Shown here: in pieces, positions 45,041 through 50,024 of the stretch
Position numbering within the stretch: the stretch's first letter is position 1
Layout: every line of letters starts with the position of its first letter
Assembly (NCBI GenBank): GCA_964493985.1
Contig: CAZBQL010000005.1
Coordinates: forward strand, 1-54,534
Direction of reading: 5' to 3'
Origin: an uncultured Dehalococcoidales bacterium
GTDB lineage: Bacteria > Chloroflexota > Dehalococcoidia > Dehalococcoidales > UBA2162
DNA length: 54,534 nucleotides
The notes under the pieces: model-generated
The model's database searches: none
Told to the model about the DNA's origin: nothing
What the model saw: the letters and a program-made list of their open reading frames with translations, nothing else
Program-made: the position numbers and the translations under genes

Positions 45041-45793
45041 TTATTTGAGTAATAACCGCTTCAATACTCCAAAAGCCATCCAGCCTAAGGCTCCTACCGC
45101 GAGAACTATTGCGGCTATACTCAACCCACCGGCGGGTCCCGTTTCACCGGTCGGACCGGGAGGCCCGATCGGCCCGACCGGTCCAGATGCGCCGGAAGGT
45201 CCTGTTAAATCATCCGTAGTAAAACTACTTCCATCCGTTAAGAATAAGGTGAAAGTGCCATCGCCGTTGTTTTCGATAGTGTCTATACCTACTCCTGGAG
45301 TACCTTCACCAGCAGGGCCGGGAGAACCGGCTGGACCCGCAGGTCCCTGAATGCCTGGAAGACCATCAGCTCCACTCGGGCCGGGAGGGCCGACAGGGCC
45401 TACCATATCGATTACCATGAACCTCGCTCTGGCGGTTTGCGGAGCACCCGTAACCGTTGTGATAGTGATAGTTACGGTGTGTGTACCCATAACAAGAGGA
45501 GTTGGTATCGGTACAATCATGATTATATAAGGTATTTTAGAAAAACTATAGCCTGTTATTATTTGTGAAGGTGTAACAGGTAACCCATCAACGTCGACTA
45601 TTAATGTGTCATTATAGTAAAAATTATTGGCATGGACGACGATGTTCACCGGATCGCCAGCTACAGTAATAACAGGAAGGTAGTTTGGTACTAAGGTGAT
45701 CGTTTCATCCTGCGCATGGACCGTATTGGTGCTTCCTGCGAGTGAGAGAAACACCGCCATGACCAAGCCTAACAATAAACGGATAATTGTCAT
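45041..45793 (-). CDS. Exported, C-terminally anchored collagen-like protein
   Basis: Signal peptide ending VHA, beta-rich domain, 11 Gly-X-Y (45302-45400) and 8 Gly-X-Y (45131-45202) triplets, C-terminal TM helix. Confidence 0.85.
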   Translation of the reverse strand: MTIIRLLLGLVMAVFLSLAGSTNTVHAQDETITLVPNYLPVITVAGDPVNIVVHANNFYYNDTLIVDVDGLPVTPSQIITGYSFSKIPYIIMIVPIPTPLVMGTHTVTITITTVTGAPQTARARFMVIDMVGPVGPPGPSGADGLPGIQGPAGPAGSPGPAGEGTPGVGIDTIENNGDGTFTLFLTDGSSFTTDDLTGPSGASGPVGPIGPPGPTGETGPAGGLSIAAIVLAVGALGWMAFGVLKRLLLK

Positions 45794-45820
45794 AGCGTCT
45801 CCTTTTTTTTATACCATCAT

Positions 45821-47626
45821 TTAGTTCGAAAACCAGCCACTAAAAGTATTAACTATACTGTCCACCAGGTGATTCCACCAGGCACCGGGATTTGATCTGA
45901 GGAGTCCAAAACCACCTCCCCAATGTATCACGAATCCTATAAGCGTACCGATAATACCGATAAAAATAATTGCCCTGACGATACGAAAGATAGTTTTCCA
46001 TGATCCGATAAACGGGTTATGGTGCAATTCACAGTTCACGGTTTGCGAATTTTCGGTGCCTTCGTTAGTAGTTATGGTAATATCATAACGTTTTCTTTCT
46101 CCTACAAAGCCACCTTTCTTAGGCTTAACTTTTACCGGTATCTCAATGGTCTCCCATGCGGGTAATACTAACTCATTCTTTTTAAATTTGAATTTCAAAC
46201 CCTCATCCAGGTCCGTAGCGTCCAGACTAATACGAGCATCGCTTGTGCCTGTGTTACTGAGCCCAACTCGAAAAGTACCTTTTCTTCGACAGGAAACACG
46301 ATATGGGGCAACCTTGAGTTTATATTCTACCAGAGGGAGTACCTGTACTTGCCCTGTGACTATAGCAGATTCATCAAGGTCGTTCTGAGAGCGTACTTTT
46401 ACTGCAAATGAATATACCTTTTCTTTAACTCCCCTCTTTTTAGGTGGATGGAATGTTATTTGCATCTGTTCAACGGCTTGAGGCATCAGCGCAATACTCG
46501 ATGCCGAACGGCTATACCAGGCTTCGTCCAGTCCCTCTACTTCCACCATGAACTTATCAACGGTCTCCCCGAGGTTCTGCAACTGTACCGAGATTATTTC
46601 AGGTATACCTCCAGCCTGACAGGTAAGTTCCGAAGGTGATAAAGATACCCTGATTCGTTCTGAAGACTTCTCCTTAGAAATCAATCGCGGTTCAACTTCA
46701 ACCGATCTTTGTGAACTCCCATATTTATTGTTTGCCGTAAGAGTATAGCTGGTGGGAGTAGAGGGTGACACCACTCTATCTCCTTGTTGTTCTACGACCG
46801 CATTATTTAACTTCACTTCTTTGGAGCGTTTTGTGGACCAGCTAAGTTTAAAATCGATTCTATCATCGCTTTGGGCTTTAAAAGTAACGATCTCCGGTGG
46901 TTTTTGAAATTGTGAAGTCAAAATACGCGGTAACCGTATGCTGGGCAATCTGACCTGTTGTATCATTCTATACCAGGCAGCGCGTGCCAGTCGGCCTTCG
47001 ACATTCATTGCTTCTTCGACATCTGGCGCTGTTGCCGATACCTGAAATGAAAAATCTTTATCTCCGCCAAAGAAAGACAACCATCCCAGATTCGCTGTCA
47101 GAGTAGCTTGCATACGACTTTTTGCAGGGATATCTAAATACTCGGGTTGCAGGTGATATCGTAGCGCTCCATGAGTATCGCTGACCTGGAGGTGGAGCTG
47201 GGAGTCACTATCTCCCGGATTGTTGACCTCTATTGTGTAAACACCTCTTCTGCCTTTGATACTCTGCGGGGAAATGCCTATTTCCAGTTCTGGAACGGTT
47301 TGGAGTTCAATACTCATCTCCACCATGGTTATTTCTTCAGGATCTGCCTGGGAACTTACCCTGATGTGGAAGGGGTAGGAGCCTGCACTGATTTTATTTG
47401 TCTTCGGTGGTTCTAAGACAATTTTCAGGTTGTCTTCATCATTGGGAAACAGGGCAACACTCGAAACCGGTAGAGTGTACCAACTGGGATCCAGACCTTC
47501 AACGCTGATAGTCAATTGATCGATAGTTTGTCCTGAGTTATGGAGGGTAAGATTAGATTCGACGCTGTCACCGACTTTGGCTACCAGAGAATCAGGGATT
47601 GCGGTCACCTGTATTTTACTTGGCAT
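45821..47626 (-). CDS. Tail-anchored protein with duplicated Ig-like (COG1470-like) domains
   Basis: Internal A-B...A'-B' duplication (N.G.T.D....VEGLD..WY twice); no signal peptide; C-terminal TM helix. Confidence 0.7.
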   Translation of the reverse strand: MPSKIQVTAIPDSLVAKVGDSVESNLTLHNSGQTIDQLTISVEGLDPSWYTLPVSSVALFPNDEDNLKIVLEPPKTNKISAGSYPFHIRVSSQADPEEITMVEMSIELQTVPELEIGISPQSIKGRRGVYTIEVNNPGDSDSQLHLQVSDTHGALRYHLQPEYLDIPAKSRMQATLTANLGWLSFFGGDKDFSFQVSATAPDVEEAMNVEGRLARAAWYRMIQQVRLPSIRLPRILTSQFQKPPEIVTFKAQSDDRIDFKLSWSTKRSKEVKLNNAVVEQQGDRVVSPSTPTSYTLTANNKYGSSQRSVEVEPRLISKEKSSERIRVSLSPSELTCQAGGIPEIISVQLQNLGETVDKFMVEVEGLDEAWYSRSASSIALMPQAVEQMQITFHPPKKRGVKEKVYSFAVKVRSQNDLDESAIVTGQVQVLPLVEYKLKVAPYRVSCRRKGTFRVGLSNTGTSDARISLDATDLDEGLKFKFKKNELVLPAWETIEIPVKVKPKKGGFVGERKRYDITITTNEGTENSQTVNCELHHNPFIGSWKTIFRIVRAIIFIGIIGTLIGFVIHWGGGFGLLRSNPGAWWNHLVDSIVNTFSGWFSN

Positions 47627-48894: not shown

Positions 48895-48959
48895 CTTTTT
48901 CTCCTTTCTCTGTTACTTCTAAAAAAACAAGAGAGAAGGTCCTTGATACTAAAAAAGTC

Positions 48960-50024
48960 CTAAATATATTCATCGTTAAATAATTGTTGATATAAATTAG
49001 TCGTTTCCGGTTCAGGGGTTGTATCAAGTTCTGACCGCATGGTTTGACAACAGATTTCGTACCAGCGCATAGCTCGATTTCTGTTTCCTTGCCGGCTATA
49101 ACAAAGCATCAGCCGTCTGTATGCGTCTTCCCGGCAATTATCTTTAGCAATGATTTTCTGACTGTAAATAATACTTCCCTCATAGTCTTTGATTTGTAAT
49201 AAATAGTCGGCAATTTTCCCCAGAATAATGAGATAGATATCCTTAAGTGTTTCCCGGCGTATCAGGAATCTGTCATCATATGGTTCATCCTCCATATAAT
49301 CGCCCTTGTACAGTACCTCCGCTGCCTCAAATTCTTTTATTGCGGCGGTTAATTCTCCTTCTTTCTCCAGACGCCTGCCCATTGTCCAGTGGTGTTCGAA
49401 CTGTTCGATATCTATCCATAACTCGATCCGGGGATTTAACTCATAACTCCCGGAATTAAACACTATAGAGGGAAATTTATCATTCTGTCCAAGAAAGTGA
49501 TTAAGTATCTTTCTAAGGCCATGTACCGCTACTTTCAAATTATTACCGGCTGCCTGAGTATTATACTCAGGCCACAAGTATCCCATGATCACATCTTTCA
49601 CAATGGACTCTCTTGGTCGAGTCAGGAATAACCTGAACAGAGATTTAGCATTTGTATTTTGCCAATCTTCTAACTTCCGTTTGCCTGAATATATCTCCAA
49701 CCTTTCAAAACAATATACTTCAAGCCTCAATGGATCGGAAATTATATTATACGGAACAGCTTCACCTAAAATTACGTTACCGATCTGGTTTGGACTAATA
49801 TCCGAACCGACCGGTATAAGGCAAAGGGTCTTATAACCTCCGCATAAGAGTATAGCCTGTGCAAGCCTCTGGTCGGCTGCATATTCTCGTTCAGATAAGC
49901 TTTCACAGGCTATTTCCAGTTGTTTCCTTACGGACTCATAATCATTTTTAACGAGCCTCAACAAGCTGACAGTATCTTGCCAGGGGTTATTATTAGTTTC
50001 GTTCATTTGGTCTTGCCACGCCAT
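48960..50024 (-). CDS. SARP/BTAD-family transcriptional activator
   Basis: Winged-helix (KSLFRLFLT...YLWPE...NLKVAVH.LRK) then BTAD/TPR (LYKGDYM, DNCREDAYRRLM..Y...GNR..A...Y..C...EL...PEPET). Confidence 0.9.
   Translation of the reverse strand: MAWQDQMNETNNNPWQDTVSLLRLVKNDYESVRKQLEIACESLSEREYAADQRLAQAILLCGGYKTLCLIPVGSDISPNQIGNVILGEAVPYNIISDPLRLEVYCFERLEIYSGKRKLEDWQNTNAKSLFRLFLTRPRESIVKDVIMGYLWPEYNTQAAGNNLKVAVHGLRKILNHFLGQNDKFPSIVFNSGSYELNPRIELWIDIEQFEHHWTMGRRLEKEGELTAAIKEFEAAEVLYKGDYMEDEPYDDRFLIRRETLKDIYLIILGKIADYLLQIKDYEGSIIYSQKIIAKDNCREDAYRRLMLCYSRQGNRNRAMRWYEICCQTMRSELDTTPEPETTNLYQQLFNDEYI

Follow-up and report, generated by a model that had tools for sequence, protein, structure and literature searches.

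The contractile injection system (CIS) of Streptomyces has no fibre, and at the fibre position encodes CisA, a bitopic membrane protein with its N-terminus inside the cell; CisA is required for contraction and firing and is not part of purified particles (PMC12237407). In the thylakoid-anchored CIS of Anabaena, Cis13 and Cis19 trimerise on the Cis11/Cis12 wedge, and Cis13 carries a transmembrane helix that anchors the system (PMC8894136). A haloarchaeal CIS resembling the type VI secretion system (T6SS) has Cis12, Cis13, and a separate conserved membrane protein, Hbor_38620, proposed as the anchor (PMC11566945). The eBAP3 fibres of extracellular CISs (eCISs) have been equated with TssK of the T6SS, and Tail_P2_I with TssG (PMC12923769). 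The CISs imaged in Roseiflexus and Thermosporothrix lie free in the cytoplasm, and these bacteria, as well as relatives in Deinococcota, are without close cisA homologues (PMC12998442). For the contact of such 'cytoplasmic' CISs with the membrane, and for their triggering, only CisA of Streptomyces is known; Roseiflexus has no CisA homologue. Here, we analyse a locus of an uncultured Dehalococcoidales bacterium, contained in a 54,534-nucleotide stretch of contig CAZBQL010000005.1 (the window), that encodes a defined and conserved three-protein candidate for the membrane link, in a class for which no described CIS was found in the literature searched.

The three genes lie on the minus strand. 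They encode a soluble 406-residue protein (47674–48894) in which a variable linker joins a shoulder/baseplate-anchor domain at the N-terminus to a DUF4159 head at the C-terminus (shoulder::DUF4159); a 601-residue tail-anchored protein with five immunoglobulin (Ig)-like (ASH/PapD-like) domains (45821–47626; Ig-TM); and a 250-residue collagen-like type I membrane protein (45041–45793). We show that they are the terminal, fibre-position genes of a CIS and that the 406-residue protein, encoded directly after Cis12 in most related loci, occupies the Cis13 slot. That the module is a CIS component is close to certain, and its proteins plausibly fasten the baseplate to the cell's own membrane.

An initial annotation of this DNA, made from the letters only, had proposed a membrane-tethered CIS in a group with no characterised example. 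The latter holds for Dehalococcoidia, for which the literature search returned incidental co-mentions and no CIS study; it does not hold for Chloroflexota, in which the Roseiflexus and Thermosporothrix systems have been imaged (PMC12998442). The search also returned no paper combining DUF4159 with contractile injection.

Genes at the fibre position of a contractile injection system

In the window, the module is headed by a SARP-type regulator of 354 residues (48960–50024, minus strand), the first gene of a four-gene unit with gaps of 65, 47, and 27 nt. These four co-oriented open reading frames (ORFs) had been recognised in the initial annotation, and their domains are found in profile searches. 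The window had been said to hold no sheath, tube, or baseplate genes, which is nearly right; the exception is positions 54485–54532 (minus strand), where the baseplate gene for Cis12 (Tail_P2_I), which runs off the window, ends with its final 15 codons and a stop codon. The encoded end, QKPAHTVYTLQVITH, matches the Cis12 C-termini of two related loci, L001 (QKPAHTVYTLQINTR) and L006 (QKPAHTVYTLQVKQH), with 88% identity to L006 in blastn. Since the Cis12 C-terminus is on the minus strand at the window end, the structural operon abuts the window end and is convergent with the DUF4157 gene described below. With a CIS structural gene found in the last 48-nt region of the window and others in the syntenic relatives, the proposed link between the module and CISs is borne out.

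L001 is a 96-kb contig of a Dehalococcoidales metagenome-assembled genome (MAG) with a 74% identical homologue. It is gene-for-gene syntenic with the window and continues into Cis12, Cis11, gp25, PAAR, and VgrG. L006 is syntenic as well, with VgrG-PAAR-gp25-Cis11-Cis12 adjoining. A scan of the genome collection, with ORFs labelled by BLASTP against reference proteins, gave 34 loci, all in Dehalococcoidia/Chloroflexota MAGs including SAR202. The dominant order is sheath-tube-x-DUF6760-tube-(tape-measure-sized protein)-Cis7-VgrG-(PAAR)-gp25-Cis11-Cis12, followed by shoulder::DUF4159, Ig-TM, and one or two copies of the collagen-like gene. The set of sheath, tube, Cis7, VgrG, gp25, Cis11, and Cis12 is adjacent in the syntenic loci L001, L005, L006, L010, L019, and others, as in a CIS locus of the Afp/PVC-like, non-T6SS kind. 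In total, the three module genes come straight after such structural genes in about 30 related loci. Cis12 is directly followed by shoulder::DUF4159 and Ig-TM in L005, L008, L010, L013, L021, L023, L024, L027–L032, L036, and L037, and the collagen-like gene comes next in most of those that extend far enough; L035 has the same genes with a gap of ~700 nt after Cis12.

In a neighbour-joining tree, the order Cis12 > shoulder::DUF4159 > Ig-TM is ancestral, and the clade of the window (with L001, L006, L007, and L009) is derived, the regulator and a cargo block separating the three genes from Cis12. The regulator-led operon of the initial annotation is thus present in the window as a derived layout, the ancestral context being Cis12 > shoulder::DUF4159 > Ig-TM > collagen-like. 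The assignment of the 406-residue protein to the tail-fibre (Afp13/Cis13) position is upheld by its place directly after Cis12 in most related loci.

L005 (9977–18937) and L016 (3202–11976) each have two shoulder::DUF4159 paralogues. One stands after Cis12 and before Ig-TM; the other comes after the same BTAD regulator gene as in the window and before the collagen-like gene, which hints that the paralogues may each pair with a different membrane partner. Paralogues in the same MAGs are also found for L019 with L014 and L022 with L011.

Ig-TM and the collagen-like protein might instead be an ordinary cell-surface module beside a CIS operon, with the 406-residue protein as the only CIS part. Collagen-like and Ig-like proteins are common on bacterial surfaces, as the weak Lcl/Scl matches here recall, and the complete chromosome CP070832.1 has a truncated DUF4159 gene and Ig-TM at 0.35 Mb (L003 10001–12776), distant from its other CIS genes (gp25, Cis11, and a truncated PAAR), which are at 1.78 Mb (L042 9329–11968). 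However, the CIS of this chromosome looks dispersed or in decay, or else the assembly contains many indels: both PAAR and DUF4159 genes are truncated, and neither VgrG nor Cis12 stands beside Cis11. Moreover, Ig-TM follows shoulder::DUF4159 in nearly every locus, including SAR202, with sequences only 35–75% identical; all named Ig-TM homologues found in the search are from Chloroflexota/Dehalococcoidia; and Ig-TM has no export signal of any kind. We therefore consider an unrelated surface module very improbable.

Independence of the module from the CIS was considered on two complete chromosomes and was not borne out: neither CP070832.1 nor CP070645.1 clearly shows the module in the absence of a CIS, although both fall short of being decisive. 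In CP070645.1, a complete 1.73-Mb chromosome, Cis12 (161 aa), shoulder::DUF4159, Ig-TM, and two collagen-like genes form a unit (L020 9510–14576) between UvrA/IlvD/CoA-transferase and acetate kinase/DprA/TopA; further CIS genes are absent from about 9.5 kb upstream and 6.6 kb downstream. In L013, a 256-kb MAG contig, the genes for VgrG, Cis7, and Cis11 are broken up into many short ORFs (4077–9265), owing to frameshift errors or pseudogenes.

The 406-residue protein and its family

The N-domain of the 406-residue protein (residues ~10–150; 48445–48867, minus strand), annotated at first as tail-fibre-like, does match the fold of fibre and baseplate anchors: the N-terminus of CIS13_fam, the Cis19 crown of Anabaena, and TssK. 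Residues 13–141 match model positions 6–143 of NCBIfam NF053767 'CIS13_fam' at 2.8e-15. In a profile alignment, residues 32–90 pair with residues 30–89 of All3314 (Cis19; 7b5h) at an E-value of 0.0076. Foldseek returns the Cis19 chains of 7B5H at 1e-3 and TssK (5y0e) at 1.3e-3; no TssK Pfam match is found at E<0.1. A hydrophobic segment is present in 0/35 homologues, and thus none of the 35 has the Anabaena-type C-terminal transmembrane helix in the fibre protein itself. These results show a soluble protein whose N-domain is of the shoulder type, through which trimers of Cis13, Cis19, and TssK are attached to baseplates. Membership of CIS13_fam proper was rejected, since only the N-terminal third of the model is matched (6–143 of 392 positions) and the score of 56.5 bits is far below the cutoff of 370.

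The head (residues 226–398; 47701–48219, minus strand) matches DUF4159 (PF13709) at 9e-14, with 51.9 bits against a gathering cutoff of 25.9. It is modelled by AlphaFold2 with a predicted local distance difference test score (pLDDT) of ~85–93 and has a flavodoxin/GATase1-like fold. The Foldseek matches are 4i66 (Hoch_4089; E 4.5e-8, template-modelling score 0.75), the ThuA-like 4jqs, and flavodoxin-like folds. A GATase1-type enzyme was considered and rejected: in an alignment of 110 diverse full-length family members, no Cys or His is found in the columns conserved in at least 90% of them. DUF4159 is therefore treated as a binding or oligomerisation domain.

The family is widespread and not specific to Dehalococcoidia. 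An exhaustive phmmer search with residues 1–175, clustered at 50% identity, gave 1,760 cluster representatives at E<=1e-3 and 409 at E<=1e-10. All 110 aligned relatives match the N-terminal part of CIS13_fam, and 95 carry DUF4159; in some, a coiled coil is inserted between shoulder and head. None of ten relatives reaches the CIS13_fam cutoff, the scores of 25–107 bits coming from the N-terminal part only (model positions ~4–180 of 392). Judged by these profile scores, the family shares the anchor domain with the CIS13_fam equivalog but is separate from it. An extra N-terminal FHA domain is present in 7/110 (P0306, P0311, P0322, P0323, P0331, P0332, and P0339; fusions of 506–561 aa), suggesting phospho-threonine signalling on a baseplate-attached protein, as with TagH/Fha in the T6SS.

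Four distant members (L040, L041, L043, and L044) are each encoded directly after Tail_P2_I in a CIS operon. Those of L040, L043, and L044 bear DUF4159 and stand at the Cis13 position; the Cis13-like protein of L041 has three tandem shoulder repeats and is without DUF4159. The next genes encode proteins with a signal peptide and lytic-transglycosylase-like proteins in L040 and L043, and FHA-like and membrane proteins in L044. Right after the Cis13-like gene of L041 comes a gene whose product starts with Ig-like domains, ends with three transmembrane helices, and is without a signal peptide, which is the same theme as Ig-TM in an independent lineage. Upstream, L041 (1–13157) also encodes giant proteins of 1,604 aa and 1,516 aa, the latter with WD40 matches.

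The receptor-binding tip is normally the most variable part of a fibre. Within Dehalococcoidia, the mean pairwise identity is 77% for the shoulder, 65% for the head, and 30% for the linker; across the diverse set, it is 27% for the head and 35% for the shoulder. By these alignments, the DUF4159 head is conserved, and neither hypervariable nor a variable receptor binder, which suggests a conserved, probably self-encoded, partner.

This pattern bears on a reading of the locus as a classical extracellular CIS, in which the 406-residue protein would be a short tail fibre with DUF4159 as receptor-binding head, particles would be released by lysis, and Ig-TM and the collagen-like protein would have some other function, for example in release, surface decoration, or self-protection. 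Shoulder-type N-domains (eBAP3–5) are eCIS tail-fibre anchors with diverse binding heads (PMC12923769), phage receptor-binding proteins are among the Foldseek viral matches of the N-domain, and the coiled-coil stalk between shoulder and DUF4159 in some relatives looks fibre-like. The GATase1/ThuA-like fold has sugar-related relatives, and DUF4157 cargo is an eCIS hallmark. However, the head is conserved across ~1,760 clusters and not swapped or hypervariable, the FHA fusions point to cytoplasmic signalling, and the closest relative with a solved structure is a cytoplasmic CIS that is not released. Release also leaves unexplained the near-obligate linkage with two membrane proteins. We regard an extracellular CIS as rather unlikely.

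Putative membrane partners and a candidate docking module

The AlphaFold2 model of Ig-TM (pLDDT 85.5) has five β-sandwiches, a transmembrane helix (residues 543–569), and a short C-terminal helix. The Pfam matches are Ig-like (FixG_C, HYDIN/VesB, and ASH). A sequence search against the PDB gave nothing useful, and the best Foldseek matches are ASH-domain ciliary proteins (ASH/PapD-like arrays), that is, generic ASH/Ig arrays only. The single transmembrane helix, WKTIFRIVRAIIFIGIIGTLIGFVIHW, is encoded at 45920–46000 (minus strand) and is followed by a conserved tail of ~32 residues (GGG...P..W), in which G570, G571, G572, P580, and W583 are invariant. All 41 homologues start in a β-strand region with no N-terminal hydrophobic segment or signal peptide and have one hydrophobic helix 26–63 residues (mostly 30–34) from the C-terminus. 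In accordance with the annotated tail-anchored tandem Ig-like protein, the bulk of Ig-TM is predicted to be cytoplasmic.

The collagen-like protein matches Collagen (PF01391) with 29.2 bits against a cutoff of 27.2. From the N-terminus, it consists of a predicted signal peptide (residues 1–27), an Ig-like domain, two runs of 11 and 9 GXY triplets separated by a small insert, a transmembrane helix, and a KRLLLK tail. This layout is kept in most intact homologues of related loci, with 11–26 GXY triplets in total, and the gene is sometimes duplicated. The anchor is the transmembrane helix with the basic tail and not LPXTG, and the Scl/Lcl equivalog scores are far below their cutoffs. The prediction of an exported, membrane-anchored protein thus agrees with its homologues. 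Collagen rises ~0.29 nm per residue, so that ~60 GXY residues correspond to a stalk of roughly 15–20 nm.

To place the CIS itself, we use L005, whose Cis11 matches Cis11 of S. coelicolor in 9GTP over its full length (1.9e-159), compared with 3.8e-10 for AlgoCIS and 3.1e-7 for Anabaena. The best matches of L005 Cis12 and Cis7 are also in 9GTP (7e-21 and 3e-20). Going by these best matches, no characterised system is closer than the type IId cytoplasmic CIS of Streptomyces coelicolor, and the comparison with Streptomyces drawn in the initial annotation is apt. The type IId trait of having no tail-fibre (Cis13) component is not shared, a shoulder-type protein being present and conserved at the Cis13 position.

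On the basis of predicted topology, gene linkage, conservation pattern, and analogy, we propose that the three proteins may be a baseplate-to-membrane docking module, to which we give an even chance. Trimers of the 406-residue protein would bind the Cis11/Cis12 wedges through the shoulder domain, with the DUF4159 head pointing away from the baseplate. The fibre-position protein has no transmembrane helix, and any anchoring must therefore go through a separate protein; the head would bind the cytoplasmic Ig-like array of Ig-TM and hold the baseplate at the inner face of the cytoplasmic membrane. Such docking would parallel TssK with TssL/M, the Cis13 transmembrane helix of Anabaena, and what is thought of CisA in Streptomyces. 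The collagen-like protein would sit in the same membrane facing outward, its stalk serving as a contact sensor or envelope-spanning antenna. The Ig-like transmembrane protein after the Cis13-like gene of L041 is a parallel to Ig-TM, and the FHA fusions, together with the FHA-like membrane proteins of L044, point to a cytoplasmic signalling link. Precedents for anchoring are the transmembrane helix of Cis13 (PMC8894136) and the separate membrane anchor of S-layered haloarchaea (PMC11566945).

Several observations weigh against docking. AlphaFold2 models the N-domain with no more than moderate confidence (pLDDT 30–85), and the structural matches to TssK and Cis19 are weak (E ~1e-3). The N-in topology of Ig-TM comes from the absent signal peptide and a weak positive-inside bias (2–3 K/R upstream of the helix compared with 1–2 downstream), and the role of the collagen-like protein comes from gene linkage alone. 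In L019 and L022, shoulder::DUF4159 has no adjacent Ig-TM, a second copy with Ig-TM being elsewhere in the same MAGs. The imaged related CISs of Chloroflexota and Deinococcota float free in the cytoplasm (PMC12998442), and shoulder-type (eBAP3-like) proteins have been catalogued as extracellular tail fibres (PMC12923769).

If docked, the CIS could fire in either direction. In a Streptomyces-like cytoplasmic CIS for regulated producer death, Ig-TM would act as CisA, stress would recruit the CIS to the membrane, and firing would damage the producer's own envelope. The baseplate proteins are closest to those of the S. coelicolor system (CIS-Sc), in which the equivalent gene position is taken by CisA, a bitopic N-in protein required for contraction. 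In related Chloroflexota, the CISs are located inside the cell, and contracted particles were observed only where cells had lysed (PMC12998442). Producer death shares the docking step with the reading that we favour and differs from it only in direction and purpose. However, the outward collagen-like partner, the cargo genes, and the possible immunity genes fit antagonism better than suicide. In L025 (1–8260) and L038 (4102–10261), up to four consecutive DUF4157-type cargo genes adjoin the module, which points to diversified payloads. Moreover, multicellular development, the setting of cell death in Streptomyces, has to our knowledge not been reported for Dehalococcoidia. CisA-like, self-directed firing is thus unlikely.

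Firing outward through the producer's own membrane, like the T6SS or the haloarchaeal system, is favoured over self-killing because the module would have a partner outside the cell and because cargo genes occur in arrays, with small conserved genes beside the toxin; we put it forward tentatively, as a possibility of less than even chance. In its most complete form, the proposal would be a trans-membrane trigger not recognised before, in which an outer collagen-stalked antenna would sense a neighbouring cell and the signal would run through paired transmembrane helices and the five-Ig array to the DUF4159 head of a TssK-like trimer and on to the baseplate. Contact would make a type IId CIS of wall-less, S-layered bacteria fire outward, as a T6SS-like weapon that lacks TssJLM, and in a large family of CISs, DUF4159 would generally serve as the adaptor to a membrane partner. 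That all of these parts hold together is doubtful.

The analysis assigns a context to the orphan domain DUF4159, found in 95 of the 110 sampled full-length members of a family of ~1,760 clusters. If docking is true, DUF4159 would be a general adaptor head, testable in culturable hosts of the family, and could serve as a marker for sorting cell-bound from released CISs in genome surveys.

Regulation, cargo, and comparison with known systems

The regulator has a BTAD domain (PF03704, residues 204–348, 5.2e-26, 92.2 bits) and a weak winged-helix match (Trans_reg_C, residues 128–176, 16.4 bits; cutoff 26.2). In L001, L002, L006, L007, L009, L014, L017, L018, L025, and L026, too, shoulder::DUF4159 is immediately preceded by this regulator gene. 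In the divergent intergenic region between regulator and cargo block (50025–50602), an alignment of the window, L001, and L006 has an invariant block, TGGTGTATAATC (50151–50162, minus strand), a putative −10-like promoter element ~128 nt upstream of the regulator ATG. Scans of this DNA for promoter and terminator consensus sequences were not above shuffled expectation. The regulator would switch on the four-gene unit and probably the divergent cargo operon too.

The divergent plus-strand genes are at 50603–51520, 51584–52078, 52075–52581, and 52784–54346, as annotated. The description of them as DUF4157 cargo genes stands for the last, which encodes a 520-residue DUF4157/eCIS_core protein (PF13699, 2.1e-33) with a DUF6782 metallopeptidase-like C-terminus (PF20573, 1.8e-6) and an acidic repeat region (IQAQRQEEEEEEEEE repeated, ~53230–53430, plus strand). 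It does not stand for the first, a putative cargo toxin of 305 residues, syntenic in L001, which has in common with the 520-residue protein only an N-terminal region of ~95 residues (32% identity, E 2e-11). This region (50678–50960 and 52889–53240, plus strand; TPFY.R.DEH.A.L ... L...YG..YVQRL, then QRQE.PEEEE) may be a cargo-loading leader. A similar motif, LQRAVGNRAVQRM, is found in a protein of the distant locus L041. The C-terminus of the 305-residue protein matches Tox-HDC (PF15656) at 0.0026, below the cutoff. The second gene encodes a 164-residue DUF7919 protein (PF25535, 8e-28), syntenic in L001 and possibly an immunity or accessory partner of the toxin. It overlaps by 4 nt with the third, which encodes a conserved 168-residue protein; L001 has a homologue with 67% identity in the corresponding position.

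The GC content drops to 0.40–0.46 across 45–54.5 kb, compared with ~0.48–0.51 in the rest of the window, which fits an acquired island for the CIS region (45000–54534). The genes upstream are of ordinary metabolism; an acyl-CoA dehydrogenase-like gene (43509–44864) adjoins the collagen-like gene, and two adjacent ORFs of 240 residues (39482–41048, minus strand) read as enoyl-CoA hydratase-like.

Compared with known systems, the CIS of this locus is IId-like and combines a shoulder::DUF4159 protein resembling TssK with two membrane partners specific to its lineage; in the literature searched, neither the partners nor a DUF4159-headed CIS protein is described. A comparable domain plan is that of eBAP3/eBAP4 and CIS13_fam, which have a shoulder-like N-terminal anchor of ~150–200 residues encoded after Tail_P2_I. 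A DUF4159 head, as found here, is not mentioned in the main text of the eBAP study (PMC12923769). In the Anabaena CIS (7B5H), too, a trimeric fibre-like protein binds the baseplate by its N-domain and provides the anchor in the membrane, and the N-domain encoded in the window aligns with Cis19. However, Cis13 of Anabaena has its own transmembrane helix, absent from the fibre-position protein here, and Cis19 is a crown protein of 1,476 residues; the baseplate lineage differs as well, Cis11 matching 7b5h only at 3e-7. TssK of the T6SS likewise combines a shoulder domain with a globular head, binds the TssG/TssF wedge, and links to the membrane complex. Here, the head is DUF4159 and not that of TssK, and no TssJLM genes were found in the loci examined.

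Dehalococcoides-type cells have an S-layer and no peptidoglycan, and the haloarchaeal CIS is therefore a useful parallel. That CIS is anchored perpendicular to the cytoplasmic membrane of an S-layered cell without outer membrane, and the gene for the separate proposed anchor lies beside the cluster (PMC11566945). Unlike Ig-TM, Hbor_38620 has six transmembrane helices and a cytoplasmic domain of ~150 residues, and no collagen-like partner has been described.

Like CIS-Sc, the loci analysed here have a small Cis12 (~190 aa), a bitopic membrane protein at the fibre position with its N-terminus inside (here by prediction), and DUF4157-type cargo nearby. As a CisA-like adaptor, Ig-TM agrees in gene position and in predicted N-in, single-pass topology and differs in domain content: in CisA, a disordered N-terminus lies in the cytoplasm and a large domain in the periplasm, whereas Ig-TM is predicted to have a cytoplasmic array of five Ig-like domains and an external tail of only ~32 residues. 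CIS-Sc is without a Cis13-like or fibre protein, whereas the system described here has shoulder::DUF4159 in that place and, in addition, a separate collagen-like protein predicted to face outward.

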